This document shows positions 7,529-19,882 of a DNA stretch of 24,000 bases, in pieces. The notes under the pieces are model-generated. The model was not told the DNA's origin. It searched no databases and saw only the letters and a list, made by a program, of their open reading frames with translations. Position numbers and translations under genes: made by a program. This DNA is from Winogradskyella sp. 3972H.M.0a.05 (lineage in GTDB: Bacteria > Bacteroidota > Bacteroidia > Flavobacteriales > Flavobacteriaceae), in NCBI RefSeq assembly GCF_040493455.1, contig NZ_JANFDA010000003.1, positions 347,592 through 371,591 on the forward strand, written 5' to 3'. Positions within the stretch are counted from its first letter, which is position 1. Each line of letters begins with the position of its first letter.

Positions 7529-8247
7529 AATTAGATATACTAGCTATAGGTGCACACCCAGATGATGTAGAATTGGGTTGTGGTGCTACAATTGCTAAAG
7601 AAATTGCAAATGGAAAGAAGGTTGGAATCATAGATCTCACCAGAGGAGAACTTGGAACCAGAGGTACTGCAGAGACTAGAGATGAGGAAGCGACAGATGC
7701 TGCAAATATTCTTGGTGTTTCTGTAAGAATAAACATGGGATTTGCAGATGGCTTTTTTGTGAATGATAAGCAACACCAAATAGAGCTCATCAAAGAAATA
7801 CGCAAGTATAGACCAGAGATTGTACTGTGTAATGCCATAGAAGATCGACATATCGATCATGGTAGAGGTAGTAAGTTGGTCAGTGATGCATGTTTCCTAA
7901 GTGGACTTGTAAAGATAGATACTAAGCATGATGATGTAGATGGTTGGCAAGACCCTTGGCGACCAAAGTTTGTGTATCATTATATTCAATGGAAAAATTT
8001 GGAACCAGAAATTGCAGTAGACGTTACTGGCTTTATAGATAAAAAGATGGCAGCTGTTTTGGCTTATAAAACCCAATTCTTTGATCCAGATAGTAAAGAA
8101 CCTGAAACACCAATTTCTAGCAAGAATTTTACAGATAGTATTAAGTACAGAGCCAGAGATCTTGGTAGATTAATTGGCACAGAGTATGCAGAAGGGTTTA
8201 CTGTAGAGCGATATCCTGCAGTGGATAGTTTGTTCGATTTGAAATAA
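7525..8247 (+). CDS. bshB1: bacillithiol biosynthesis deacetylase BshB1 (LmbE/PIG-L family)
   Basis: It carries the N-terminal LAIGAHPDDVELGCGATIAK motif (AHPDD zinc motif), then IDLTRGELGTRG, EDRHIDH and YAEGF near the C-terminus. These are colinear with Bacillus BshB1 as I remember it. The start ATG overlaps the upstream stop (ATGA at 7525-7528). Confidence 0.8.
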   Translation: MKLDILAIGAHPDDVELGCGATIAKEIANGKKVGIIDLTRGELGTRGTAETRDEEATDAANILGVSVRINMGFADGFFVNDKQHQIELIKEIRKYRPEIVLCNAIEDRHIDHGRGSKLVSDACFLSGLVKIDTKHDDVDGWQDPWRPKFVYHYIQWKNLEPEIAVDVTGFIDKKMAAVLAYKTQFFDPDSKEPETPISSKNFTDSIKYRARDLGRLIGTEYAEGFTVERYPAVDSLFDLK

Positions 8248-8311: not shown

Positions 8312-8386
8312 GGTGGTTGTAGCTCAGTTGGTTAGAGCGCCTGATTGTGGTTCAGGAGGTCGTCGGTTCGAGACCGATCTTCCACC
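8312..8386 (+). tRNA. tRNA-His (anticodon GTG) with genome-encoded G-1
   Basis: I folded the cloverleaf by hand. The acceptor is GTGGTTG/CTTCCAC with G-1 opposite C73, and the D arm is GCTCAGTTGGTTAGAGC. The anticodon arm is CCTGA-TTGTGGT-TCAGG and the T arm is GTCGG-TTCGAGA-CCGAT. Positions 5:68 and 6:67 are U-U. The supplied ORF 8310-8519 is an artefact of this gene. Confidence 0.88.
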
Positions 8387-8390
8387 CAAA

Positions 8391-8448
8391 ATAAAAGCCT
8401 TTCAGTTATCTGAAAGGCTTCTTTTGTATATAGTGTTTTTAGATTTAG
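8391..8448. repeat. junction repeat copy 1 (hairpin plus right flank)
   Basis: By hand alignment, 8391-8448 matches 10108-10164 at about 52 of 58 positions with one 1-nt indel. The shared sequence is ..AAGCCTTTCAGnnnnCTGAAAGGCTTCTTTTGyATATAGTGTTTTAGATT. Confidence 0.7.
8395..8426. terminator. bidirectional intrinsic terminator hairpin (hairpin-element copy 1)
   Basis: The structure is AAGCCTTTCAG-TTAT-CTGAAAGGCTT (8395-8420). It is followed by CTTTTG on the plus strand and by TTTATTTTGGG on the minus strand. It lies between the convergent tRNA-His gene and the 8502-9959 gene. Confidence 0.65.
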
Positions 8449-8501
8449 TGGTAACGTCTCCAACTATGAATCGTTTTAATGGCTTATGCAAATTGATTGA
8501 C

Positions 8502-9959
8502 TTAGTCTTTTGTGTTTAACAATTTATTTAATTCTGTCTTACTTAAATATTGTCCTCGTTGAACTAGTCCACTTATCGTTAATGTGTTTTCAATGTTTTT
8601 CATTGGGTTCTTGTCAAGGATTAAAATGTTTGCAGTTTTACCTTCTTCAATAGTTCCAAGTTCATCCTCGCGTTCAACATATATAGCAGGATTCAAAGTA
8701 GCCGTTTGCAAAGCTTCCAACTCGGTAAAACCAGCTTTAACAAAAAGGGCTAGTTCATCATGTAATGTAAACCCTGGATATATATTTGGATTACTAGTAT
8801 CTGTCCCTGCTAAAAATTTAGAGCCATTATCCAACATGGGCTTTAAATAAGACATTGTTAGTTCAAAAAAAACTTTCTCAACTTCACTTGATTCTTTACT
8901 AGCTACTAAATAGGATGGTGCTCCATCTTCTGTTATGTCTCCAAACCAGTACTCTTGTTCTTCCTTTGGAATGTATTTTAACCTTGGATCATGCTTAAAA
9001 ATAGAATCAATTTCTTCATTGACAATATAAGATTTCAAAAGTGATAAGGTCGGACAAAACCAAGTGTTCTCTGATTTTGTGATAGTAAGAATATTATCTT
9101 TTAAGTTGCTGTCAAAGGCTTCAAGAAAAGCTTCTGTATACGTATTAATATCTAAATCTTTATGGGTGTTTATAAAAGATTTATAATCAGCAATACCATG
9201 CTCTAATCCTATCGAATGTTCTATGCTCTTTTGGCCAGCTAAGATTCCTTCTTCCGCTGTGACTTGCAATGGAAGGTGTCCTGCAAATTTAAAGTCTAAC
9301 TTCTTGCACTCATCTGCAATGGCCTGATAGGTCTCATAACTGAGGAAATTATAAACCTTTACAAAGTCATATCCTTTCTCATAATATTCCCTTACCAGTT
9401 TGCGGCCTTCTTCGGGATTTGAGGCCACTCTGGCTCCTGGCCAAGTTTCACCTGGCCCATCGGTTATTGGGCTAGAATAAAGAAATTCAAAACCTCTATA
9501 AAATCCATCCTTCCTATTTTTTTTGATGTCTTCGATTCCCTTATCTGAACCATGCATACATCTTAATCCTGTAATTCCTAAAGCAGTGTATCTATCCAGT
9601 ACCCAATCCTTACCCCATAGATGAGCGTGCATGTCCCACAAACCAGGGATGATGTATTTATTACTTGCATCAATTAGGGTGTCAGTAGTCCTTAAGTCCT
9701 TATCGTGGTGGGTGATTTTCAGAATTTTATCCTTATTAATCCAAATGTCACGATGTTCTAGAATTTCTCCTGTTTTTACATCTATGATATTGCCGTTTGA
9801 AACAATTGTATGGTTAACTACAATATCTTCTTGACATGAGAGCCCCAAAAGAAACAATGCTAATATTAATGTTAGTTTAATTTTCACTGATTTTGAAGTA
9901 AGTCCAACGGTTTGTGTATAGTTTTCAATTATAGAAATCACCGAAATAAAGTTAGTCAT
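8502..9959 (-). CDS. amidohydrolase family lipoprotein (imidazolonepropionase/prolidase-like metal hydrolase); start uncertain (ATG 9959 or GTG 9887)
   Basis: It has PGLWDMHAHL (HxH), a later HSIGLEHG, GTDTSN and a C-terminal GTIEEGKTANILILDKNP, all typical of Amidohydro_1 proteins. A signal peptide with lipobox LFLLGLSC begins right after the in-frame GTG at 9887, so the 24 aa upstream may not be translated. Confidence 0.8.
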   Translation of the reverse strand: MTNFISVISIIENYTQTVGLTSKSVKIKLTLILALFLLGLSCQEDIVVNHTIVSNGNIIDVKTGEILEHRDIWINKDKILKITHHDKDLRTTDTLIDASNKYIIPGLWDMHAHLWGKDWVLDRYTALGITGLRCMHGSDKGIEDIKKNRKDGFYRGFEFLYSSPITDGPGETWPGARVASNPEEGRKLVREYYEKGYDFVKVYNFLSYETYQAIADECKKLDFKFAGHLPLQVTAEEGILAGQKSIEHSIGLEHGIADYKSFINTHKDLDINTYTEAFLEAFDSNLKDNILTITKSENTWFCPTLSLLKSYIVNEEIDSIFKHDPRLKYIPKEEQEYWFGDITEDGAPSYLVASKESSEVEKVFFELTMSYLKPMLDNGSKFLAGTDTSNPNIYPGFTLHDELALFVKAGFTELEALQTATLNPAIYVEREDELGTIEEGKTANILILDKNPMKNIENTLTISGLVQRGQYLSKTELNKLLNTKD

Positions 9960-10066
9960 TTAGTTTTCGCATAAATCACAATGTCCTACTAAATTCATTA
10001 ATACTTTAGTACAGTTTTCGATTTTCGTTCATATTTCGCCCAATGTAATTGTATATACAATATATG

Positions 10067-10074
10067 CAAATTTA
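10067..10074 (-). promoter_or_regulatory. candidate -7 box TAAATTTG (minus strand) reading toward the 8502-9959 gene
   Basis: The plus-strand caaattta is TAAATTTG on the minus strand and matches TAnnTTTG. The corresponding position in copy 3 (13467-13474) reads TAAATTTA. Confidence 0.4.
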
Positions 10075-10110
10075 TAAGTATAATCCCGCATACTCTAGGT
10101 TCGAAATATA

Positions 10111-10138
10111 GAAGCCTTTCAGTATTCTGAAAGGCTTC
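10111..10138 (-). terminator. hairpin-element copy 2, probable terminator of the 10205-10909 gene
   Basis: GAAGCCTTTCAG-TATT-CTGAAAGGCTTC forms a 12-bp perfect stem 67 nt past the stop codon. The minus-strand tail (CTATATTTCG) is only moderately T-rich, whereas the plus-strand tail is TTTTG. Confidence 0.5.
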
Positions 10139-10204
10139 TTTTGCATATAGTGTTTTAGATTGAGCAAGTGACACTAGGAGTTAAGCTTATTATTGTATGA
10201 GGCT

Positions 10205-10909
10205 TTATAGACCATTTTTGCTTTTCCAATTACTCATTGTCGTTGGATGGTTATTATCAGTAGGATAATTCTGATTTATAAAGTCTAGTTGTTTTAATGT
10301 TAGCAGTACAAACATCCCATCATTGCCACAACTAATTGGATAAAACTGTTCGTCCGAATTTTGTCTCTTCAGTTCTGCGTTCAACATTTCTATGAAATTT
10401 ACATAGGCAATTCCCCAATCAAGATCTGAAAATGGTCCATCGAAGGCTATATATTCAATCCCGTTCAGTTCGATCGTATGTTTCCAGTTGTTCTGACCTT
10501 GCAGGCTATTTTCATATGCAAATTCTAATTTCAGGTCAAGTTTTTCAAACGTCGGTTTTACTAGGTTTAAATATTCTGTTAGTCCACCTGTTTCAAAAAG
10601 TTCTTCACAGTCTATCCAATGGAAGCGGTTATCCATAAAATACAATGTTTCTCCACGCGTAGGGCCTTGAAAGAAATTCAAGTCCGTGTATGCTTTCTCA
10701 ATATCAAACTTAACCGTATCCAATTCAGATTCTTTAGTCAAACTGAAATACCCTAACTTTTCTAATTCTGTTACTACTTCTTTTCCGCTTAGTTTCTTTT
10801 GAATTGCTTTCTCTGGATTTTGATTTTTGATTTTAGAAACCGTATTATCTTTTTTGGAATTACAGGCTAAAAATGTGAGAAGCAATATGGTTAGAAAAAT
10901 ATGTTTCAT
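10205..10909 (-). CDS. hypothetical lipoprotein (about 235 aa from ATG 10909)
   Basis: The signal peptide MKHIFLTILLLTFLAC is followed by NSKKDN. The listed start at 10948 adds 13 residues ahead of this signal and is less likely. I recognise no family for the mature part. Confidence 0.6.
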   Translation of the reverse strand: MKHIFLTILLLTFLACNSKKDNTVSKIKNQNPEKAIQKKLSGKEVVTELEKLGYFSLTKESELDTVKFDIEKAYTDLNFFQGPTRGETLYFMDNRFHWIDCEELFETGGLTEYLNLVKPTFEKLDLKLEFAYENSLQGQNNWKHTIELNGIEYIAFDGPFSDLDWGIAYVNFIEMLNAELKRQNSDEQFYPISCGNDGMFVLLTLKQLDFINQNYPTDNNHPTTMSNWKSKNGL

Positions 10910-11009
10910 TGAGTTTTGTAAGATTGTTAACAATGGTTTTAGTATCATTCCGTAGTAACAACCAATTTAGCAAAAAGACTTGATAAACTGTGTTAGAGAT
11001 TCATCTGGA

Positions 11010-11579
11010 TTAGTTATGCATGTTATTAGTTACTGTGATTTTTGTTACAATATTTTTGTAATATTCTAAAATCAACTTACTTGAAAATAATTCAAATTCG
11101 AAATTATATGAATACTTATTGGTCTGTTTTTGTGGAATTCCAAATACTTTTTGAAAATCTTGAATAGTAGAACCAATTTTTAATTCGTTTTTAAACGGAA
11201 AAGACTCTAGGCTAGTCTCAAAATGATATATTTCAAAGCCATTTGTTCCAAAAGTCCAAGTTGAATCCGTTTTGAAGACCGAGGATTTCATCTCTGCTAT
11301 TTTTTCTCCTTTGTGCATGTATTTACAGTCGTAGTATACTCTCACAGAGATTTTTAAATTATAGGGGTTTTGATTTTCACTGGTTTTACATTCAATTTCG
11401 TATTGAAGATTGTTTATTATCAAATTATTTCGTGGGTCTTTAAGAAAATCCTTAACTACAATGGTATCAATTACAATATTCGAGTCTGTGTTCAATCCAT
11501 TTTGACTTTTCTTATAGGTACAATTAATAATACAAGTCAATGTTAATATTAAAGATATTTTTTTAATCAAAGGTGTCAT
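11010..11579 (-). CDS. hypothetical lipoprotein (189 aa)
   Basis: The N-terminus MTPLIKKISLILTLTCIINC has Cys candidates for lipidation and is followed by a beta-rich, Asn/Lys-rich sequence. I recognise no family. Confidence 0.55.
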   Translation of the reverse strand: MTPLIKKISLILTLTCIINCTYKKSQNGLNTDSNIVIDTIVVKDFLKDPRNNLIINNLQYEIECKTSENQNPYNLKISVRVYYDCKYMHKGEKIAEMKSSVFKTDSTWTFGTNGFEIYHFETSLESFPFKNELKIGSTIQDFQKVFGIPQKQTNKYSYNFEFELFSSKLILEYYKNIVTKITVTNNMHN

Positions 11580-11672
11580 AATTACAGCTAATGGTCCTCA
11601 GTAATAGGTAATTATTTTTTGCTTACAGTATTAAACCACAATGAATTATAACCATTGTTTGTGCATCAGTTT

Positions 11673-11927
11673 TTATTTGTCATACCAGGAGTAAACTAAC
11701 TCGGTTATTTCTTCGACATTATTTTCACTAATAGTAAGTCCATAAGTTGTAATTAATTCACTCGATATTACTCTTTTAATTTTCTCCAAGTCGTAACCAT
11801 TTTGTAGGTCAAGAATTAGTTTTCTACTCAACTTTTTAAAAGAATGACTGTCGCCAGATAGCATAATGTCCGTCTGATATATGATTTTACTTAGTGCATT
11901 AATATTTTGTTCGTCAAGAATTTTCAC
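11673..11927 (-). CDS. hypothetical small cytoplasmic protein (84 aa, GTG start)
   Basis: This ORF fills the gap between two same-strand genes and looks helical. It has no signal peptide and no upstream in-frame ATG. I recognise no family. Confidence 0.45.
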   Translation of the reverse strand: MKILDEQNINALSKIIYQTDIMLSGDSHSFKKLSRKLILDLQNGYDLEKIKRVISSELITTYGLTISENNVEEITELVYSWYDK

Positions 11928-11960
11928 TTAGTTTCTTTATGTAGTTATAAAAACTTAATG

Positions 11961-12437
11961 TTATTCTGGAATAGGATCTCCTTCTCCAGGTTTTAAAATT
12001 GAAAACGCCCAATCGGTAGATTTTGGAACATTTAATTTATCGAGCCACTCTCCACCTAATCCAGCAACTTGTATTTTATTATCAATTACTTCTAACCCTT
12101 CTGTTTCTCCAAAGAAGAATTGAATTCCGTTGTCGAGCGCAACACCCATTGTGTCTGGTATTTTAAATACATAACTTTCGTTTGGCTTAATTATCACTTT
12201 TTCATTTGCACTAATTGAATTTGCAGTTTCATTGAAAATAAAAATGTTATATACTTTCCCTGTCGCATTATATGTTTCAGGTTTGATAGTTTCTCCGCTA
12301 TAATTTGGATTAATATAAACCTTATTATTTTGTGTTTCTTCGCTCTCGTTCTGCTTATTTTCCATTTTTGATTTACATTGGAAAAAGAAAATTGTGACAA
12401 GAGCCGATATGTATACTAAATGTTTTCTGTTTTTCAT
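11961..12437 (-). CDS. hypothetical secreted protein or lipoprotein (158 aa)
   Basis: The N-terminus MKNRKHLVYISALVTIFFFQC is followed by KSKMENKQNESEE, a charged post-Cys region like Bacteroidota surface lipoproteins. I recognise no family. Confidence 0.55.
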   Translation of the reverse strand: MKNRKHLVYISALVTIFFFQCKSKMENKQNESEETQNNKVYINPNYSGETIKPETYNATGKVYNIFIFNETANSISANEKVIIKPNESYVFKIPDTMGVALDNGIQFFFGETEGLEVIDNKIQVAGLGGEWLDKLNVPKSTDWAFSILKPGEGDPIPE

Positions 12438-12477
12438 TTTTTAATTACGTAGAATGGTCTCAAATAAGAACAGTGAT

Positions 12478-13413
12478 TTAAGACCACAGTTTTTTCCACC
12501 AAGATTTACTTTTGTTATTACTACTGTTTTCTAATTTACCACTTGCCTTATCATTGTTTTCAGGAATTATTTGCAGCTGGCTTTTTTCTTTATTCTCAAA
12601 TTGGCTCAATAATTTATCTTCCTCATCTAGTTTGTCATATGCGTCAGCCTCAGTTAAGTGTCCATCTTGATCACTAATTCTGGTCAATTCTTTTCCTTGT
12701 CTGAAGACCAATTGGAGTCCATGTTCTTGTTCCCATTCACATTCACAAGTTACATTAACATAAATGTCTTCATCTCTTCGGTGTCTTCTAGTTACATATA
12801 TATCTTGGGCGTAAATAAAATTCCATATTTTATTTTTCTCTTTGATATCCCAAAGTGGTTGGTCAGCTTCATCATATCCAATAGCATTTAGGAATTCCAT
12901 ACAATTCTGATATGCAAGTTCACTGAGCTTTAGCCTGTCATTAGTTTTCTTTTCCAAGAATAACTTTAAAGCTTTATCAGCCTCATCTATAAATCTCGAG
13001 TCGTTTTCGAGAATCAAGTCCATAAATGTGATTTTCAGTTTTTTATGGTCAAAGAATGGGATTTCTATAGGTTCACTTTCCCACCAATCATCGAATTGAT
13101 CATTTTGGAACAGAGTTCCAATTACTTCACTTGTTATAAAATTTCTTGAGTTAGATTCCCATTCGTTCTCAAAATCAGTTTTTGAGATTTCAAACTCATT
13201 AAATTCTTCTAAATCCAATTCTTGATCACCTAAACCTCCATACTTGTCTTCAGTATTGTTTTTACTATATTTTAAAATAACTCCATTATCATATTTTTCG
13301 ATCTGTCGTAATGGGAAACCTGTCTCATCTGTTTCAAAAAAAAATGTAGAAAAGCCCCAATCATTAAATTGATCACCCCTTTTTTCGGTCCATTTTCTCT
13401 TGAAGTATTTCAT
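12478..13413 (-). CDS. hypothetical two-module cytoplasmic protein, possibly related to immunity proteins
   Basis: There is no signal peptide. The N-terminal module of about 90 aa reads MKYFKRKWTEKRGDQFNDWGFSTFFFETDETGFPLRQIEKYDNGVILKY...FEISKTDFENEW. The central module ends in VNVTCECEWEQEHGLQLVFRQGKELTRISDQDGHLTEADAY. The tail is low-complexity and ends KSKSWWKKLWS. The resemblance to DUF families linked to polymorphic-toxin immunity comes from memory and is unverified. Confidence 0.5.
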   Translation of the reverse strand: MKYFKRKWTEKRGDQFNDWGFSTFFFETDETGFPLRQIEKYDNGVILKYSKNNTEDKYGGLGDQELDLEEFNEFEISKTDFENEWESNSRNFITSEVIGTLFQNDQFDDWWESEPIEIPFFDHKKLKITFMDLILENDSRFIDEADKALKLFLEKKTNDRLKLSELAYQNCMEFLNAIGYDEADQPLWDIKEKNKIWNFIYAQDIYVTRRHRRDEDIYVNVTCECEWEQEHGLQLVFRQGKELTRISDQDGHLTEADAYDKLDEEDKLLSQFENKEKSQLQIIPENNDKASGKLENSSNNKSKSWWKKLWS

Positions 13414-13466
13414 AAGTTATTATTTTCCTAGGTTTGCTCCCAAGGTATATGCATTCGCAATATATA

Positions 13467-13474
13467 TAAATTTA
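13467..13474 (-). promoter_or_regulatory. candidate -7 box TAAATTTA (minus strand) upstream of the 13413 start
   Basis: It is a near match to TAnnTTTG, lies 53 nt upstream of the ATG at 13413, and is positionally equivalent to the box in copy 2. Confidence 0.35.
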
Positions 13475-13511
13475 TAACTATAATACTGTATGTTTAAGTT
13501 TCAAAATATAA

Positions 13512-13537
13512 AAGCCTTTCAGGTAACTGAAAGGCTT
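13512..13537 (-). terminator. hairpin-element copy 3, terminator of the 13564-14094 gene
   Basis: AAGCCTTTCAG-GTAA-CTGAAAGGCTT lies 27 nt past the stop codon. The minus-strand tail is TTTATATTTTG. Confidence 0.6.
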
Positions 13538-13563
13538 AGTTGTTTTTATAGTAAAGCTTAATG

Positions 13564-14094
13564 CTATTCTGATTTTTCATACGCTTCTTTTAGCCATTCT
13601 ATAAGTTCAGTGTCTACATCTTCTACAGTATTTAATCGCACTCTATGCGTACACATAGAACCAAATGGACCCGAATTCTCAAGACGCTCAGTAAGGGCTT
13701 TTCCTTTTAGCTTTAAACCTAAATCGATGCGTGTTTTGGTTGCAGGTTTTATTAATGCAAATTGTCGTTTTCTAATACAGCTCACACTATCTTTTTTTGG
13801 AGTGACTGTGATATCATTTCCAAACTCATTAATTTGTTCTAGAAGCTTTTCGTAAATCGGCTTTAAGTGTTCTTTTCCTTTGTATTGGTTGGTTAATAGG
13901 CTTTCATCATCTATAGAACCAGCATCCGATTTTCTGGCTTTTAGAGATACAAAATTTGCGTATCCGTGAGTGAAACCATGTTCAGATTTTAAAAAGTCTA
14001 CAATAGCTTTGTGCTTTTCAATCTTTGACGCTTTTACAACGTTTATCCAGTGATCTATTGGTTTTCCAGTTTTTTCAAGTATTCCTTTTTCCAT
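13564..14094 (-). CDS. DUF4287/DUF5655-like protein
   Basis: The N-terminal KTGKPIDHWINVVKASKIEKHKAIVDFLKSEHGFTHGYANFV matches the DUF4287 pattern as I remember it. The C-terminal half resembles DUF5655. Confidence 0.6.
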   Translation of the reverse strand: MEKGILEKTGKPIDHWINVVKASKIEKHKAIVDFLKSEHGFTHGYANFVSLKARKSDAGSIDDESLLTNQYKGKEHLKPIYEKLLEQINEFGNDITVTPKKDSVSCIRKRQFALIKPATKTRIDLGLKLKGKALTERLENSGPFGSMCTHRVRLNTVEDVDTELIEWLKEAYEKSE

Positions 14095-14106
14095 TGTTTT
14101 ATGTTT

Positions 14107-14517
14107 TTACCAGGCACCAAGTATAGCGCCCATTAGTGTTAATGCTACGATGCAGTATCCTGCATTTATTATATATGCTTTTAGTGATTTCATTTCAAAT
14201 AGGTATAGTATTCCGAGCATTGTGGCTACCCAACCAAAACCTGTAAAGAAACCAGCTAGAGTTCCAAATGTTACATCTGCCTCAGATCCAATGAACATTT
14301 CTAAAATCAATGCTGCAATACATGCGAGGAGTAAGGAGAGTCCAAAAGTTTTTGGGACACTTCTCTTTTTTAAATCTTCTTCGGTAACACCAAATTCGGT
14401 CATCCAGCCTTTCCCAAATAGTGGTCCATACCAGATGCCTCCAATTAAAAATGATGACACCGCAGCTACTATAACCGAAAGCCAGTTAATGTTTTCTACT
14501 GCTGTTGCTAAATCCAT
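14107..14517 (-). CDS. DUF1761-family membrane protein
   Basis: It has four hydrophobic helices. The N-terminal NWLSVIVAAVSSFLIGGIWYGPLFGKGWM is the characteristic DUF1761 opening. Confidence 0.65.
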   Translation of the reverse strand: MDLATAVENINWLSVIVAAVSSFLIGGIWYGPLFGKGWMTEFGVTEEDLKKRSVPKTFGLSLLLACIAALILEMFIGSEADVTFGTLAGFFTGFGWVATMLGILYLFEMKSLKAYIINAGYCIVALTLMGAILGAW

Positions 14518-14582
14518 AAATCATAATGTTTTAAATTAAAGTACAAGTCTACTTTAATCTAATTTTACTGGATAGTAAAAAA

Positions 14583-15416
14583 TTAACCTTGCCTGTCTAA
14601 GGGGAAGAAATTCTTCTCTTCATCGTTATGAAAGTTCTGTTGTATGAACTTTTGAGGGTTTATTCCCGAGAAGTGTTTGAACTCTTTTATAAAGTGTGAT
14701 TGATCTGCATATTCGCATAGATAAGCAACTTGTGACCATTCAATCTTTTCTGTTTGATGAATTTGTTGTAGAATTTCATTAAATCGTAGAATTCTCTGGT
14801 AATATTTTGGCGTTAAGCCTACATATTTTTTGAATTGATCTATGAGATGCTTTTGCGTTTTTGAATAGTCTTGAATGATCTTATGATAGTTTGCGACAGA
14901 CTCGGTTTGCAATTTTTCTAAGACACCCAATAATTCAGTAGGAGGAATTCGATCTTCTTGAAATCTATTAGCAAGCCAATTCTCAGCTACTTCAAATTTT
15001 TCTTCTGAGGTTGCCTTAACTAAGATATCTTCTCTTAGTGTCAAGATTTCGGTTCCAAATACCTGTTCTGCTGGGACTACTTTGTCATTTAGTTCTTGAA
15101 TAGGAACATGGAAAAACGGATAGGCTCCATAGGGTTTAAACTGAATGACGAACATTTCGGATTTTTGGTGCGCAGAAATTGAAATGTAATTTTTGTGCAT
15201 TCCAGACACCCAAACTTTTGTAAATGTATTGTTCGGTTTCAGGGTTTCATTATCAAAGGTATTTCGAACAAAACCATCTAATTCAAAGATGATGAAGATA
15301 TGCCCTGTTGGCACTACACGTTCAATAGAATGATCTGGAACAAAGTCTTTAAAATGAAAAATGGATTCAATGTAGTTGCTTATAGTTCCTTTTATGTCAT
15401 GTGTTTTAAAAATCAT
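14583..15416 (-). CDS. AraC/XylS family transcriptional regulator
   Basis: The C-terminal double HTH region (LIDQFKKYVGLTPKYYQRILRFNEILQ ... AYLCEYADQSHFIKEFKHFSGINPQKF) is typical of AraC regulators. The N-terminal domain of about 170 aa is presumably ligand-binding. Confidence 0.85.
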   Translation of the reverse strand: MIFKTHDIKGTISNYIESIFHFKDFVPDHSIERVVPTGHIFIIFELDGFVRNTFDNETLKPNNTFTKVWVSGMHKNYISISAHQKSEMFVIQFKPYGAYPFFHVPIQELNDKVVPAEQVFGTEILTLREDILVKATSEEKFEVAENWLANRFQEDRIPPTELLGVLEKLQTESVANYHKIIQDYSKTQKHLIDQFKKYVGLTPKYYQRILRFNEILQQIHQTEKIEWSQVAYLCEYADQSHFIKEFKHFSGINPQKFIQQNFHNDEEKNFFPLDRQG

Positions 15417-15437
15417 TAGCTGTATTCAGTTTGAGTT

Positions 15438-15932
15438 CTATTGATTCACAAAAGTTTCGTTTAGCACAGTTGTTTCTCTTAAGTCAACGTTCTGTTCGAT
15501 TACAGATTTTAGGTTGGTGAGAAAGAACACCCAACATACGCAGCAATTTATAAATGAAAATTCATTTTCTGCTGTTGGATTTAAGTTTTTCTGATGTAGA
15601 TGCAAAATAGTACTGCCGGATTCATGTCTTTCTAAACTGAATAGAACTGTAAAATCTTTACCAAACGTAAATTCGAAATAGGAGTCATTCTCAGAAGCAA
15701 TAATTTCACCTTCAATTTGAAAATCCTTTTGCCATTTCCATAGATATGCTGTTCCGCTTGAAGGTACTTCGGTAGCGCTTAGTTGCTCATTTTGGCTTGA
15801 AAACTTTACGTTTCCAAGAAACCAAGATTCCAATCCTTGAGCAGTCGCTACACATTGATAAACATCTTTAATTGTTGTATGTAGCAATATTTTGTGGCTG
15901 AATTCACTTTTTGAAAAATCTTCTTGCCTCAT
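15438..15932 (-). CDS. SRPBCC superfamily (AHSA1/START-like) protein
   Basis: Its size of 164 aa and pattern (VYQCVATAQGLESWF ... YLWKWQ ... EGEIIASENDSYFEFTF) resemble Aha1-domain/SRPBCC ligand-binding proteins. The start overlaps the upstream stop (ATGA at 15929-15932). Confidence 0.55.
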   Translation of the reverse strand: MRQEDFSKSEFSHKILLHTTIKDVYQCVATAQGLESWFLGNVKFSSQNEQLSATEVPSSGTAYLWKWQKDFQIEGEIIASENDSYFEFTFGKDFTVLFSLERHESGSTILHLHQKNLNPTAENEFSFINCCVCWVFFLTNLKSVIEQNVDLRETTVLNETFVNQ

Positions 15933-16471
15933 AATAAACCCGCTTTAAATTTTAGTTTTAGAGGTTTTAAACACCCTGGTAAATCCATAGCTCGTCTCCA
16001 AACGGTTAGCTGCGAAATGTGATTGGTTTCGTGCCAGGCAGCCATAAAGTGGATGACTTCAAGTTTGGTAGGAAAAACGGTATCAAAAGACCAGTTCATC
16101 TTTTCCTGAAGAAACTCTTCACTACGATCGTTGAGCAAATCGATTTGTCTTTTGTGGCTTTCCAGATACTTTTTTAATAGCGCTTCTTTGGTAGGGTATA
16201 GGGTTTCGTCTGCTTGTGGAGTTCTAGGATCTCCAGGACCTGTTCTTCTAAAAACCTTAATCCACGCTTCTGGAGTTGTATTCTTATCACCTAATATTTC
16301 GCATGACATTTCTGAAGCATCATAAAGATGTCCAATAGTCCATGCTGGATGATTTTCTATGCCTTTAGATGGAATGATTGACATTTGACTATCTGGAACA
16401 TCTTCGACCAATAATTTTAGGTGTTCTTCATTTAAGCGTAAAGACTTTTTTATTAATTCTATTGGATTCAT
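15929..16471 (-). CDS. DinB-superfamily protein
   Basis: A four-helix-bundle pattern carries His residues (HPAWTIGHL ... AAWHETNHISQL) typical of DinB_2-like metal-binding proteins. Confidence 0.6.
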   Translation of the reverse strand: MNPIELIKKSLRLNEEHLKLLVEDVPDSQMSIIPSKGIENHPAWTIGHLYDASEMSCEILGDKNTTPEAWIKVFRRTGPGDPRTPQADETLYPTKEALLKKYLESHKRQIDLLNDRSEEFLQEKMNWSFDTVFPTKLEVIHFMAAWHETNHISQLTVWRRAMDLPGCLKPLKLKFKAGLL

Positions 16472-16496
16472 AAGATCTTAGCTGCAAATTGAGTAG

Positions 16497-17000
16497 TTAC
16501 TTATTTTCAAAATAAAAGTCTGTCCACATAGACCTCCAGATTTTCCAGGAATCATCTGATTGTTTCTTGTAGATTGTAGTATTAATGCCTTTTTGAAGCA
16601 TTCCGAAACGGATAGTATCTTTTTGATAAGTCCAGTCGAGTATTGAGTTATGAGTAGAAATAGCCAAGGTATCTAATACTTTCAAACTAATGATTTCGGT
16701 TTGAAAATCGTGAACTGTGGTTACCGAACTATCCTTTGGAAACCAAAACTTTTGTATTTCAGATTTTCCTTCAACAGGACTTAAACCACTTGGTTGTATA
16801 CGTGCGTCTTCTTCTAGAAGATTTAGTATTTTATCTTCATCCATTTGCAACCATCCATCGACATAGTCTTTATGAACTTGTATTATGGCTTGCTCTTCTT
16901 TGTCAATTGACTCTTTTGATTGTTCTTTATTACAACCAACACACAAGCATAATATAAATAATGATAAAAAAATATTTGAGAAGATTCTATCTATTTTCAT
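16497..17000 (-). CDS. SnoaL-like / NTF2-fold (DUF4440-like) lipoprotein
   Basis: The signal peptide has the lipobox LCVGC. The mature part (IIQVHKDYVDGWLQMDEDKILNLLEEDARIQPSGLSPVEGKSEIQKFW) fits the NTF2-like cone fold pattern. Confidence 0.6.
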   Translation of the reverse strand: MKIDRIFSNIFLSLFILCLCVGCNKEQSKESIDKEEQAIIQVHKDYVDGWLQMDEDKILNLLEEDARIQPSGLSPVEGKSEIQKFWFPKDSSVTTVHDFQTEIISLKVLDTLAISTHNSILDWTYQKDTIRFGMLQKGINTTIYKKQSDDSWKIWRSMWTDFYFENK

Positions 17001-17110
17001 GTTTATTAATATGAGTTTAAGTATTTGAATACCATTTAAGCGTATGCTCTAATATAGTAAATATGTAGAAGTATTCATTAGAGGGTTTTTAGAGGATTAA
17101 ATAACAAAAA

Positions 17111-17138
17111 AAAGCCTCCCAGTAATCTGAAAGGCTTT
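17111..17138 (-). terminator. hairpin-element copy 4, terminator of the 17166-18764 peptidase gene
   Basis: The plus strand reads AAAGCCTCCCAG-TAAT-CTGAAAGGCTTT. On the minus-strand RNA the two plus-strand C-A mismatches become G-U pairs, and the stem is followed by a T-rich tract (TTTTTGTTATTT). It lies 28 nt past the stop codon. Confidence 0.7.
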
Positions 17139-17165: not shown

Positions 17166-18764
17166 TTATTCGCTAGCTTCAGCTTTATCCACTACGATAC
17201 GTTCATCACGGTTGGCTAATTCCCAAGCAGTATGAAATACTAATCGCGCTCTATTCTCAAGCAAATCATATTCGATTTTATCTGGAGTATCGGTTATTTT
17301 GTGATAATCATCATGGGTACCATTGAAATAGAAGATTACTGGGATATTATTCTTTGCAAAGTTGTAATGATCTGATCTGTAATAGAAACGATTTGGATCA
17401 TTTTCGTCATTGTACTTGTAGTCCAACTCTACATTGCAATATTTTAAGTTTACGTCTTCTGAGATGTTATGTAACTCTGTACTTAGCTTGTCACTACCAA
17501 TGAGGTAAACATAGTTCCTATCTCCAGTTTTGCGTTTGGGATCAACACGACCGATCATATCTATATTTAGATTGGCAACCGTGTTTTCTAATGGGAAAAT
17601 CGGATCCATATCTGTGTAATATTTTGAGCCTAACAAGCCTTTTTCTTCACCAGTGACATGTAAAAACAAGATTGAACGTTTTGGACCGTGACCATTTTTT
17701 TGAGCTTCTTTAAAGGCTTCAGCAATTTCTACAACCGCAACTGTACCAGAGCCATCGTCATCTGCACCATTGAAAACTTCTTTATTTTCATCTACACCGA
17801 CGTGATCTAAATGTGCAGATATCACGACAATTTCATCAGGCTTTTCTGAGCCCTCAATGAATGCTACTACATTTTCTGAAGTGAAATCTTTAGATGAATT
17901 TTCAATATCAATAGTTAAGTTTGCTGTAATTGATTTTGGAGTATGGTCATTAACGATTTTATCATAAATTACTTTAGCAAATACACTATCTACTAAAAAG
18001 AAAGGTGCATTTTTTCCATTGTCTTTTAATGACATTCTCCCGCCTTGTGAAGCATAGGAGGTCGAAGAATTATATATTGTTGAATAATAAGTAGCATACC
18101 TTGGAAAGATAGCTTCATCCATAAGTAGTATAGCTCTAGCACCTTTATCTCTCGCCAAGTTACGTTTAGAGAACATAGATTGTCTACCACCAGACCATTT
18201 TGTTGGCTCGGCTGTACCAGTAGTAACGTAAGTTCCGTCTTCGTTCTTTGCTTCTCCAGCTTTGATTAGAACGACTTTATCTTTTACATCGAGGTCTTTA
18301 TAATCTGAATAGCCTTCAGACTCAACACCGTATCCAGCATAGACAACATCGCTAGCTGTTATAGTTTGTGTAGTGCCGCCCAAAAGGCAAAATTGGTGAT
18401 CGAAAGGAGCGAAGTTTCTATCATTAATGGTTATTGTTGTTTTTGCGACTTGTCGTTTCTGCAAAGGCACTTCTTGGAAATAATCGTCACCCTTCAAAGG
18501 ACTAGGAATTTCCATGGATTGATACTGTGCTTTTAGATATTCTACGGCTTTCTTTTGACCTGGCTCACCAGTCTCTCGACCTTCAAACTCATCAGAAGCA
18601 TAGACATAAAGCATGTCTTTTATTTCATCTGCAGTAATGGTTTCGGCATAGACCACAGGATCCGCAGGAGCATTATTTTTTTCTTTAGAGACTTTGTTAT
18701 GTGCTGATGGACCACAACCTGTAATTAGTAAACCAGCAGCTAGAAGTGCAAAAATTGATTTCAT
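17166..18764 (-). CDS. M28 family aminopeptidase lipoprotein with an inserted PA (protease-associated) domain
   Basis: The lipobox is LLITGC. The M28 zinc-ligand blocks are ISAHLDHVG, NGADDDGSGT, HVTGEEKGLLGS, NIDMIG and RSDHYNF. An extra segment of about 190 aa (VVYAGYG...KDKVVLIKAGE) sits where PA domains occur. Confidence 0.85.
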   Translation of the reverse strand: MKSIFALLAAGLLITGCGPSAHNKVSKEKNNAPADPVVYAETITADEIKDMLYVYASDEFEGRETGEPGQKKAVEYLKAQYQSMEIPSPLKGDDYFQEVPLQKRQVAKTTITINDRNFAPFDHQFCLLGGTTQTITASDVVYAGYGVESEGYSDYKDLDVKDKVVLIKAGEAKNEDGTYVTTGTAEPTKWSGGRQSMFSKRNLARDKGARAILLMDEAIFPRYATYYSTIYNSSTSYASQGGRMSLKDNGKNAPFFLVDSVFAKVIYDKIVNDHTPKSITANLTIDIENSSKDFTSENVVAFIEGSEKPDEIVVISAHLDHVGVDENKEVFNGADDDGSGTVAVVEIAEAFKEAQKNGHGPKRSILFLHVTGEEKGLLGSKYYTDMDPIFPLENTVANLNIDMIGRVDPKRKTGDRNYVYLIGSDKLSTELHNISEDVNLKYCNVELDYKYNDENDPNRFYYRSDHYNFAKNNIPVIFYFNGTHDDYHKITDTPDKIEYDLLENRARLVFHTAWELANRDERIVVDKAEASE

Positions 18765-18801: not shown

Positions 18802-18850
18802 ACCTTTGTATGAGGTTAATGGCTTATGGTTTAACACTATTTTAAAAAAA

Positions 18851-19882
18851 TTAGAGTTTTTCTGGTGAAAGGCGCAATTCTGAATTTGCTAAATACCATG
18901 CCGTTGTAAAGATTAGCTTAGTACGTTTTGCCAGTAAATCATAGTTAATCTTATCTGGTGTGTCAGTAGGTTTGGAGTAATCTTCGTGTTCTCCGTTGAA
19001 ATAAAATATAACAGGGACGCCTTGTAGTGCAAAATTGTAATGATCAGACCTGTAGTAATAGCGGTTGAGATCGTCGTCTGCGCTGTAGGTATAATCTAAC
19101 TCCAAATTTGTGAATAACTCATTTGCTTTTTCAGAGACATAATGAAGCTCAGTACTAATACGATCGGCTCCAATGATGTATATGTATTCATCATCGTTTT
19201 CGTGCCTTCTATCGGTTCTTCCAATCATATCTAAGTTTAAGGCCGCTACTGTATTTACTAAGGGGAATACTGGGTTTTCTGTGTAATATCTAGAGCCATA
19301 TAAACCGATTTCTTCTGCGGTCATATGCATGAAGGCTATACTTCGTTTGGGTCTAAATCCATTTTGCTCTGCGAGTTTAAAGGCTTGTGCCATTTCTAAA
19401 ATCGCTGATGTTCCTGAGCCATTATCATCTGCACCCAAGTAAATTTCACCATTAACAATTCCCTCATGGTCTGAATGTCCAGAAATGATCACAACTTCTT
19501 CAGGATAAACTTCACCCTCTATATAGGCGATCACATTTTGAGAATCGTTATAGCCTTCAGGGAAATACTCGGAGGGTACTGTCTGGTAGTATTCGTTGTC
19601 TGAAATTGGCGACCCAATATTGTGCTGTTGGTAGAAGTTGCGTAGGTAATTACATGCTTTGTTATGGCCTTCTTCACCTGTTTTTCTACCTGTAAATTCT
19701 TCAGAAGCAAATTTTTGTATATGGAATTCTAGCTCGTCTACAGTAATAGTATTCGCATATTTTTCTATAGTATCTTGCTGCTCAAAAACAATACTTTGTT
19801 TTAAGTTCTTTACTTTTTCACTATATCTTAGTTCTGTACACGAACCAACTAAAAATAAGGCAGAAAGGAAATAAAATTTCAT
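18851..19882 (-). CDS. M28 family peptidase lipoprotein (short paralog without a PA domain)
   Basis: The lipobox is LVGSC. The same ligand blocks are present (ISGHSDHEG, GADDNGSGT, HMTAEEIGLYGS, NLDMIG, RSDHYNF). The protein is colinear with the C-terminal 250 aa of the neighbouring gene product. Confidence 0.85.
   Translation of the reverse strand: MKFYFLSALFLVGSCTELRYSEKVKNLKQSIVFEQQDTIEKYANTITVDELEFHIQKFASEEFTGRKTGEEGHNKACNYLRNFYQQHNIGSPISDNEYYQTVPSEYFPEGYNDSQNVIAYIEGEVYPEEVVIISGHSDHEGIVNGEIYLGADDNGSGTSAILEMAQAFKLAEQNGFRPKRSIAFMHMTAEEIGLYGSRYYTENPVFPLVNTVAALNLDMIGRTDRRHENDDEYIYIIGADRISTELHYVSEKANELFTNLELDYTYSADDDLNRYYYRSDHYNFALQGVPVIFYFNGEHEDYSKPTDTPDKINYDLLAKRTKLIFTTAWYLANSELRLSPEKL

Follow-up and report, generated by a model that had tools for sequence, protein, structure and literature searches.

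A 24-kb stretch of DNA from Winogradskyella sp. 3972H.M.0a.05 (Flavobacteriaceae), referred to here as the window, contains five genes of obscure function between positions 10205 and 13413, and their origin is the subject of this analysis. Open reading frame (ORF) calling confirmed five co-oriented ORFs on the minus strand, three for predicted lipoproteins and two for cytoplasmic proteins. From upstream to downstream these are ORF5 (12478–13413; 311 amino acids, cytoplasmic, with an N-terminal beta domain, a DUF6985 domain and a disordered tail), ORF4 (11961–12437; a predicted lipoprotein of 158 amino acids), ORF3 (11673–11927; 84 amino acids, GTG start, cytoplasmic), ORF2 (11010–11579; a predicted lipoprotein of 189 amino acids) and ORF1 (10205–10909; a predicted lipoprotein of 234 amino acids). 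The gaps between them are 40, 33, 93 and 100 nt, in line with the 33 to 100 nt given in the original prediction, which had been made from the letters of the stretch. For the discussion below, ORF5 is assigned to a putative cassette A, ORF4 and ORF3 as first and second gene to cassette B, ORF2 to cassette C and ORF1 to cassette D.

ORF1, ORF2 and ORF4 are predicted to be bacterial lipoproteins on the basis of an N-terminal signal peptide and a conserved lipobox cysteine, which is nearly invariant in ORF1 (Cys16, 31 homologues) and invariant in ORF2 (Cys20, 7 homologues) and ORF4 (Cys21, 14 homologues). A signal peptide is absent from ORF3 and ORF5, and the earlier division into three proteins with a signal peptide and cysteine and two without thus stands. 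The true start of ORF1 lies at 10909, and the resulting 234 amino acids match the NCBI protein and all homologues; a longer frame starting at 10948 extends into the upstream site. For ORF2 and ORF4, the NCBI annotation starts too late (161 and 134 amino acids), and the signal peptides are lost in this way; the forms of 189 and 158 amino acids are backed by homologue alignments with the conserved lipobox cysteine. No NCBI (WP) accession or name is listed for ORF3 in the protein collection.

The five-gene module has a G+C content of 31.2%, compared with 35.1% for the window and 36.3% outside the insertion zone described below, and a G+C content at third codon positions of 27.8% versus 30.8%. It is the stretch of 3.2 kb with the lowest G+C in the window, about two standard deviations under the mean. 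The low G+C reported earlier is therefore real, but the contrast drawn from hand counts (18–33% in the module against 35–55% in neighbouring genes) was overstated. Within the 24 kb, no tyrosine recombinase or integrase was found, and no toxin, Rhs, type VI or type IX secretion system (T6SS, T9SS) effector or secretion gene either. The statement that the module contains no toxin, secretion or enzyme motif was likewise upheld.

Comparison by tblastn and blastn with loci fetched through each gene (designated by L and a number) divided the module into four blocks of homology that abut one another in the window. The first (13443–12453) comprises ORF5 and is 79.5% identical to a metagenome contig (L021), the second (12446–11639) comprises ORF4 and ORF3 and is 84% identical to a Psychroserpens locus (L017), the third (11591–11014) comprises ORF2 with 76% identity to another Psychroserpens locus (L026), and the fourth (10940–10204) comprises ORF1 with 79% identity to Tenacibaculum (L025). 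No locus carrying more than one of the four blocks was present among those fetched. The families also differ in size: 8 homologues were found for ORF2 and 109 for ORF1 (all taxon-named ones from Flavobacteriaceae or an unclassified Bacteroidota metagenome-assembled genome), ORF4 forms 40 clusters among 1.84 billion representatives, and ORF5 has more than 500 homologues across Bacteroidota. The five genes had been proposed to form one module or system, with conserved co-occurrence in other genomes as the test; since only ORF4 and ORF3 travel together and conserved co-occurrence is not seen, the single-module reading fails by that test.

ORF4 is 88–91% identical, in protein and DNA, to homologues in Algicola, Psychroserpens, Leeuwenhoekiella, Maribacter, Aquimarina, Aequorivita and Hyunsoonleella, with a nucleotide identity of about 90% across at least seven genera. 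The DNA homology of ORF4 (12446 to 11961) begins 9 nt before the ATG and ends at the stop codon. Between genera, ORF4 shows a synonymous divergence (dS) of 0.3–0.46 and a ratio of nonsynonymous to synonymous divergence (dN/dS) of 0.10–0.17, and for ORF3 dS is about 2 (saturated) and dN/dS 0.07–0.09. The low dN/dS values together with the contrasting dS show that both are real genes with different histories. ORF3 is 70% identical to the gene following ORF4 in L001 to L005 and L017, but even this pairing is not fixed. In most arrays the usual partner of ORF4 is a cREC_REC protein of 112 amino acids ('cyclic-phosphate processing receiver'; L007 3369–3707, L009 10484–10822, L012 5201–5539, L020 10518–10856, and L010), and ORF3 takes its place in the window, in L001 to L005 and in L017. 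The possibility that ORF3 is a divergent cREC_REC protein was rejected, as the two partners proved unrelated in a comparison. Because ORF4 occurs with alternative partners, it appears to recombine with them at its stop codon. A gene of 247 amino acids adjoining ORF4 in L001 has the length of the longer ORF1 frame but is unrelated to ORF1.

Homologues of ORF1, ORF2 and ORF4 lie in long unidirectional arrays of marine Flavobacteriaceae (L017 2820–20477, L001 1–16477, L025 1–8100, L026 1–12601, L009 6831–20037, L012 and L007), in which each gene or gene pair is followed by a conserved spacer of about 137 nt. In its order of parts this spacer corresponds to the attC site of integrons: a 5' R'' box (e.g. 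GCCTAAC) is followed by a short unpaired stretch, the L'' arm GTGTATAAT, a variable centre, the L' arm ATCATACAC and a 3' R' box (GTTAGGC) that closes the spacer, and the consensus ends are RYYYAAC … GTTRRRY. A covariance model (A4, R1) was built from 16 sites in two loci, and a broader model was termed R2. With R1, 72 sites were found in loci reached only through ORF4, 70 of them on the cassette strand; the other two are weak minus-strand matches lying antiparallel over strong sites. A further 24 sites around the homologues of ORF1 and ORF2 bring the total to 96. Stem positions are paired in 90.8% of cells across 69 distinct sites, compared with 72.3% in shuffled alignments, and stem covariation is 0.399 against 0.111 when shuffled (0 of 500 as high) and at most 0.089 with the partners slid. 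The AAC/GTT core is nearly invariant (C11–G229 in 67 of 67 and A10–U230 in 66 of 67).

A further regularity was observed at the cassette borders. In 47 of 60 adjacent pairs, all six bases that follow GTT at the 5' border match the reverse complement of the cassette's own downstream R'' box, and in 52 of 60 at least five of the six do. Random pairs are perfect in 1.6% of cases, and the two ends of one and the same site in 1 of 68. This complementarity of a cassette's own borders, the signature of integrons, is the trace left when cassettes are excised as circles and inserted again at G|TT. Strain variants of the arrays differ by entire cassettes, and the cargo includes HpaII and Eco57I-type restriction-modification systems, YoeB/Phd, AbiC, HEPN, cREC_REC and YARHG proteins and T9SS-tailed proteins. 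Whole systems can occupy a single cassette, as is the case for the HpaII restriction-modification system between the attC sites at 2338 and 4985 of L001 and likewise for the Eco57I-type system, YoeB/Phd and AbiC. A 300-nt repeat of 99% identity (9630–9929 and 17886–18185 in L017) stands directly after two attC R' sites and is probably a duplicated 5' region of a cassette.

Where the head of an array is visible (Psychroserpens L017, Aquimarina L020 and Leeuwenhoekiella L009), it is occupied by a co-oriented tyrosine recombinase. These recombinases pass the NCBIfam model NF040815 ('XerA/integron integrase') but fail TIGR02249 (187–199 bits against a cutoff of 265), giving a split match in which model positions of about 181–260 are unmatched. 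The additional domain specific to the integron integrase (IntI) was thus not matched by TIGR02249 in the array recombinases, which are about equally near to XerA (5hxy) and VchIntIA (IntI4; 2a3v). Taken together, the attC anatomy, the cassette rule and the recombinase at the head indicate that the related arrays are integron-like. The homologue of ORF1 in Tenacibaculum (L025) is the final cassette of such an attC array, that of ORF2 in Psychroserpens (L026 4858–5436) sits between two attC sites, and those of ORF4 with ORF3 or of ORF4 are flanked by attC sites in L001 to L005, L007, L009, L012, L017 and L020. To judge from these sequence comparisons, ORF1, ORF2 and the pair ORF4 and ORF3 would each be individually mobile, with homologues as cassettes in other arrays.

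In the window, three junctions between the blocks sit where attC sites would be expected, on the correct strand. Junction J1 (12447–12578, minus strand) is a decayed attC-like site made up of the final 100 nt of ORF5 together with the space between ORF5 and ORF4, and it encodes the disordered, poorly conserved tail of ORF5 (residues ~254–302). It scores 29.8 bits with R1 (E of about 1e-5) and aligns base for base with a bona fide attC upstream of the ORF4 cassette in Aequorivita (L012). Its cores read AAT for AAC in R'' and CATT for CGTT in R' (at 12452). Junction J2 (11580–11672, minus strand) is a putative truncated remnant, in which the 5' R''/L'' part is retained and the centre lost, with CATTAGC as R'. 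About 34 nt from the start of the attC located after ORF3 in Psychroserpens are preserved, together with a recognisable R' end (about 11590), and the blastn homology to L017 continues to 11639, inside the 5' end of that attC. Junction J3 (10926–11034, minus strand), again attC-like and decayed, has an internal deletion of about 35 nt. It begins inside the 3' end of ORF2, mirroring the attC after the Psychroserpens homologue of ORF2, and it aligns both to that attC (L026) and to the attC before the Tenacibaculum homologue of ORF1 (L025); its cores read TAAT in R'' and CCATT in R' (about 10937). The case for J2 and J3 as attC remnants is made by position and alignment. With R1, J3 reaches 13.9 bits (E = 0.12), and no window site apart from J1 exceeds 14 bits. 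The R2 model brought no gain: J1 fell to 21.9 bits (E = 0.0017), and J2 (10 bits, E = 1.2) and J3 (11.5 bits, E = 0.5) stayed at noise level. As a negative control, 720 kb of related DNA gave only three matches, all of them strong true sites.

The module lies beside a tRNA-His gene, in an insertion zone with repeated hairpins. The tRNA-His (8313–8387, plus strand) is directly followed on its 3' side by a palindromic, terminator-like hairpin (copy 1, 8395–8420; the whole feature extends from 8313 to 8443). This hairpin, AAGCCTTTCAGnnnnCTGAAAGGCTT, recurs at 10112 and 13512, and a fourth copy (17112–17137) with two mismatches marks the far edge of the zone, just before the stop of an M28 peptidase gene; no copy would be expected by chance. 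The second copy (hairpin 10112–10137) is part of a junction repeat at 10034–10165 and the third (hairpin 13512–13537) of one at 13434–13556, and 10034–10137 and 13434–13537 are 75% identical over 104 nt, so that the bracketing junction repeats noticed earlier are genuine. Copies 2 and 3 have a 72-nt left flank in common and copies 1 and 2 a 28-nt right flank (each 0 of 500 shuffles as high), and it follows from these shared flanks that the first two segments of the zone have like ends. In about 30 related metagenome contigs, BshB1, tRNA-His, the same hairpin, M28_532 and M28_343 are found within about 300 nt. As BshB1 ends at 8247 and the M28 gene starts at 17166 in the window, the 8.7 kb at 8421–17111 constitute an accessory zone that is absent from these relatives. 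Foreign origin of the DNA, originally suggested from G+C, is thus borne out by synteny and by cassette homology, not by composition.

Three segments make up the accessory zone: S1 with an amidohydrolase, S2 with the five genes, and S3 with DUF5655, DUF1761, AraC, AHSA1, DinB and DUF4440. A -7 box of the Bacteroidetes type, TAAATTTG, is located at 10074–10067 (minus strand) in copy 2, upstream of the amidohydrolase gene, and a promoter-like box, TAAATTTA, occupies the homologous place in copy 3 (13474–13467, minus strand), upstream of ORF5. The candidate promoter that had been placed in this repeat copy receives modest support from the correspondence. A GTG ORF of 58 amino acids (9998–10174, minus strand) overlaps junction repeat copy 2 and its hairpin and is almost certainly no gene. 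Genes for secreted amidohydrolases are found at 8502–9959 in the window and within a few kb of relatives of ORF4 or ORF5 in three other loci (L020 6626–8251, L024 5382–6800 and L016 13824–15191), which is probably fortuitous, given how common the family is in these genomes. In L033, an element of about 400 nt (10859–11300) is found at the 3' end of tRNA-His, flanked by direct repeats of the tRNA end (CCGGTCTTCCACCCAA.AC.ACAA) and by hairpins of its own; other small insertions thus make use of this site as well.

These observations are best explained if the 3.2 kb consist of four integron-type cassettes in a row (ORF5, ORF4 with ORF3, ORF2 and ORF1), decayed and CALIN-like (CALIN, cluster of attC sites lacking integron integrase), that were stranded beside tRNA-His, and this reading is considered likely. 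The cassettes would have been acquired separately and be of the kind that marine Flavobacteriaceae swap between genera, moving in the related arrays by excision as circles and re-insertion at G|TT. In this Winogradskyella, where the 24 kb hold no recombinase, they would have become stranded, and mobility would have been lost through mutation of the site cores (AAC to AAT, CGTT to CATT) and partial loss of the stems. On account of the mutated cores and the lost border complementarity, the sites between the cassettes are read as decayed, and the genes are probably no longer mobile. A single transcript probably spans the five genes, starting at the promoter-like box of repeat copy 3 and stopping at the copy 2 hairpin. 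As for the way into the zone, segments S1 to S3 may have entered one after the other by recombination at or near the tRNA-His terminator hairpin; alternatively, different 'alleles' of the site could have been joined in tandem by unequal exchange.

Several points weigh against this reading. Only J1 of the three junctions is significant by covariance model, with J2 and J3 at noise (10–14 bits), and a chance match at 18826–18911 reaches 13.9 bits, the same score as J3. The border complementarity typical of the arrays is lost in the window, where a hand comparison showed that cassette B matches at 0 of 6 bases and cassette C at 3 of 6. The nearest relatives of ORF5 are single chromosomal genes and not array members, so that the cassette past of this gene depends entirely on its weak attC-like 3' end. 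Finally, the flanks show no similarity to the tRNA and an integrase is missing, and the arrival route into the tRNA-His zone is deduced from the arrangement of the repeats. The left flanks had been considered as decayed copies of tRNA-His, as would be expected of the att repeats of an island, but their similarity was no better than that of shuffled sequences (254 to 483 of 500 scored as high). When the flank sequences L(b) and R(a) were sought in all 106 fetched loci, the hairpin alone matched, and no attC sites were found at the tRNA-His hotspot of the relatives.

What the five proteins do is a separate question. Searches of Pfam, NCBIfam, PADLOC and PHROGs gave no family match for ORF1 to ORF4, as had been anticipated for four of the five proteins. 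The fifth had been likened to immunity-type modules; ORF5 belongs to DUF6985 (PF22481; residues 102–253, E = 8e-35, 121 bits against a gathering cutoff of 24.5), but no Imm- or SUKH-type family was matched by any window protein in Pfam (Imm families included) or PADLOC. The invariant residues of DUF6985 are C223, C225, E228, E230, H231 and H252, a cysteine, histidine and glutamate pattern that would fit a metal site or an enzyme too and neither favours nor rules out an immunity role. Confident AlphaFold models were obtained for ORF1 (predicted local distance difference test, pLDDT, of 85) and, outside its tail, for ORF5 (pLDDT 79.6), in which residues 251–302 are disordered. Foldseek found no fold match for either model in the PDB, nor for the ORF5 model among the viral structures of BFVD (best E > 0.05 in both searches), and PDB sequence profiles yielded nothing for ORF4 and ORF5. 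A best guess, held with low confidence, is that the proteins may serve individually selected accessory functions in the envelope or in defence, like other array cargo, because related cassettes elsewhere keep company with restriction-modification, toxin-antitoxin and abortive infection (Abi) systems.

A more specific proposal is that the module represents an orphan immunity or defence islet, in which lipoproteins protect against envelope-acting toxins and cytoplasmic proteins against cytoplasmic ones, gathered as in rAID-1 or polyimmunity loci and acting individually. This concerns the function of the proteins and is compatible with a cassette origin. The layout recalls rAID-1 in that G+C is low, the genes are small and share one orientation, intergenic sites recur and, in related arrays, a Xer-type recombinase is present, and the related arrays hold restriction-modification, YoeB/Phd, AbiC, HEPN and cREC_REC cassettes. 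Furthermore, a DUF6985 relative is found in an array together with NADAR and NADase_transloc genes. Neither Imm families, PADLOC, PHROGs nor PDB sequences or folds gave a match, however, the window lacks a toxin or a Rhs, T6SS or T9SS effector, and the invariant residues of DUF6985 would suit a metal site or an enzyme as well. An immunity islet is therefore regarded as possible but doubtful. The array with the DUF6985 relative (L024 10001–17646) is a one-directional run of small genes headed by this relative, with DUF8250, NADase_transloc, NADAR, Bflower and DUF805; it contains no R1-type attC sites and may thus be a different variable or polyimmunity-like array.

Another explanation concerns the junction repeats, which might be merely similar terminators or a genome-wide element of the repetitive extragenic palindromic (REP) type and would then be uninformative on the arrival of the block. 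The hairpin is indeed terminator-like and palindromic, and its count in this genome covers 24 kb. On the other hand, it is a single copy, always right after tRNA-His, in all 27 related loci whose downstream sequence extends for 3 kb or more, the four copies in the window are confined to the 8.7-kb zone and its two edges, and neighbouring copies share 28–72 nt of flanking sequence. A dispersed repeat is thus seen as unlikely.

If the cassettes are not decayed, they could form a still-active CALIN with a variant ATT/AAT core, served by a recombinase elsewhere on the chromosome. All three R' cores read CATT where the family has CGTT, two of the R'' cores show the complementary change (AAT for AAC), and the ORF5 relative in L021 also has CCATT; a shared CATT core could reflect either a mutational bias (CpG loss) or a variant core. 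The variant was seen, however, in 0 of 76 strong family members, the deletions in J2 and J3 remove parts of the stem, complementarity of the cassettes' own borders is lost, and G-to-A and C-to-T are the commonest mutations in AT-rich DNA, all of which makes continued activity improbable. Least credible, to the point of being nearly discounted, is one co-functional envelope operon, passed on as a whole, whose lipoproteins would form a complex together with the two cytoplasmic proteins; this would suit the common orientation, the short gaps, the single promoter-like box upstream and the hairpin downstream, but is at odds with the lack of co-occurrence elsewhere, the differing phyletic patterns (from 8 homologues of ORF2 to more than 500 of ORF5) and the location of the nearest relatives in different genomes and neighbourhoods.

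Beyond the window, it is tentatively proposed, as less likely than not, that the related arrays represent an undescribed lineage of integron-like platforms in marine Flavobacteriaceae, with hosts in at least Psychroserpens, Tenacibaculum, Aquimarina, Maribacter, Leeuwenhoekiella, Aequorivita and Algicola. Such a lineage would combine a co-oriented Xer-type recombinase without the IntI insertion, uniform attC sites of about 137 nt, the G|TT rule, and cassettes with restriction-modification, toxin-antitoxin, Abi and lipoprotein genes, which would pass from genus to genus with about 90% of nucleotides identical; the window would be the end state, in which cassettes have become fixed in the chromosome after site decay, and the tRNA-His terminator hairpin a repeatedly used entry site. 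Little seems to have been written on such a platform of marine Flavobacteriaceae with a Xer-like recombinase, uniform 137-nt attC sites and defence cargo. The sole integron-like system described in the phylum is rAID-1 of gut Bacteroidales. The marine arrays carry the full integron signature but a Xer-like recombinase, and they spread defence systems and lipoproteins of the envelope among genera. The window may illustrate how such cassettes become ordinary-looking chromosomal genes for a 'hypothetical lipoprotein', which is of relevance for the annotation of many orphan genes in these genomes and for tracing gene flow in marine Bacteroidota.

Among known systems, integrons have been surveyed in Bacteroidetes with IntegronFinder, and next to none were reported, namely In0 elements only and one complete integron, in Salinibacter (PMC9024848). 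With tRNA-linked islands and tandem arrays resembling cis-mobilisable elements (CIME), the zone has in common that it adjoins the 3' end of a tRNA, is absent from relatives and is split by direct repeats; it differs in that what is repeated is the terminator hairpin that follows the tRNA and not the tRNA 3' end, and in the lack of an integrase. Sedentary chromosomal integrons of Vibrio and other Proteobacteria, which have a canonical IntI, store anti-phage defence cassettes (10.1101/2024.07.02.601686). The related Flavobacteriaceae arrays likewise hold whole defence systems as single cassettes, but for the five proteins of the window PADLOC gave no match to any known defence model.

In rAID-1 of gut Bacteroidales, the recombinase belongs to the XerD family, the intergenic sequence is repetitive and the G+C is skewed (Ross et al. 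2019, 10.1101/471110). These clusters are from the same phylum, and the related arrays share with them a XerD-family recombinase at the head of a one-directional array, repetitive integron-like spacers, skewed G+C and cargo found across genera. Unlike in rAID-1, no cargo here was matched to T6SS or other immunity families (DUF6985 being the only Pfam match), the hosts are marine Flavobacteriaceae, and the array cargo consists of restriction-modification, toxin-antitoxin and Abi systems. The window itself has no recombinase and shows only the G+C skew and decayed repeats.

The last comparison is with CALINs, clusters of attC sites without an integron integrase (Cury et al. 2016; PMC9024848; PMC8618304), for which IntegronFinder 2 by default asks for at least two clustered attC sites without integrase. 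Scored by R1 and R2, the window offers one site with E < 0.01, a second with E = 0.12–0.5 and no recombinase. Its sites are too decayed to count as attC sites: by covariance model one passes, and an intact AAC/GTT core is missing from all of them. The parent arrays differ as well, since their recombinase is Xer-like without the IntI-specific insertion and transcribed in the same direction as the cassettes, and their attC sites, at about 137 nt, are unusually uniform. What the window has in common with CALINs is a series of small co-oriented cassettes of unknown function, separated by putative attC-type sites, with low G+C and without a neighbouring integrase, and the published routes by which CALINs originate, namely off-target insertion, integrase loss and rearrangement (PMC9024848; PMC8618304), fit the window.

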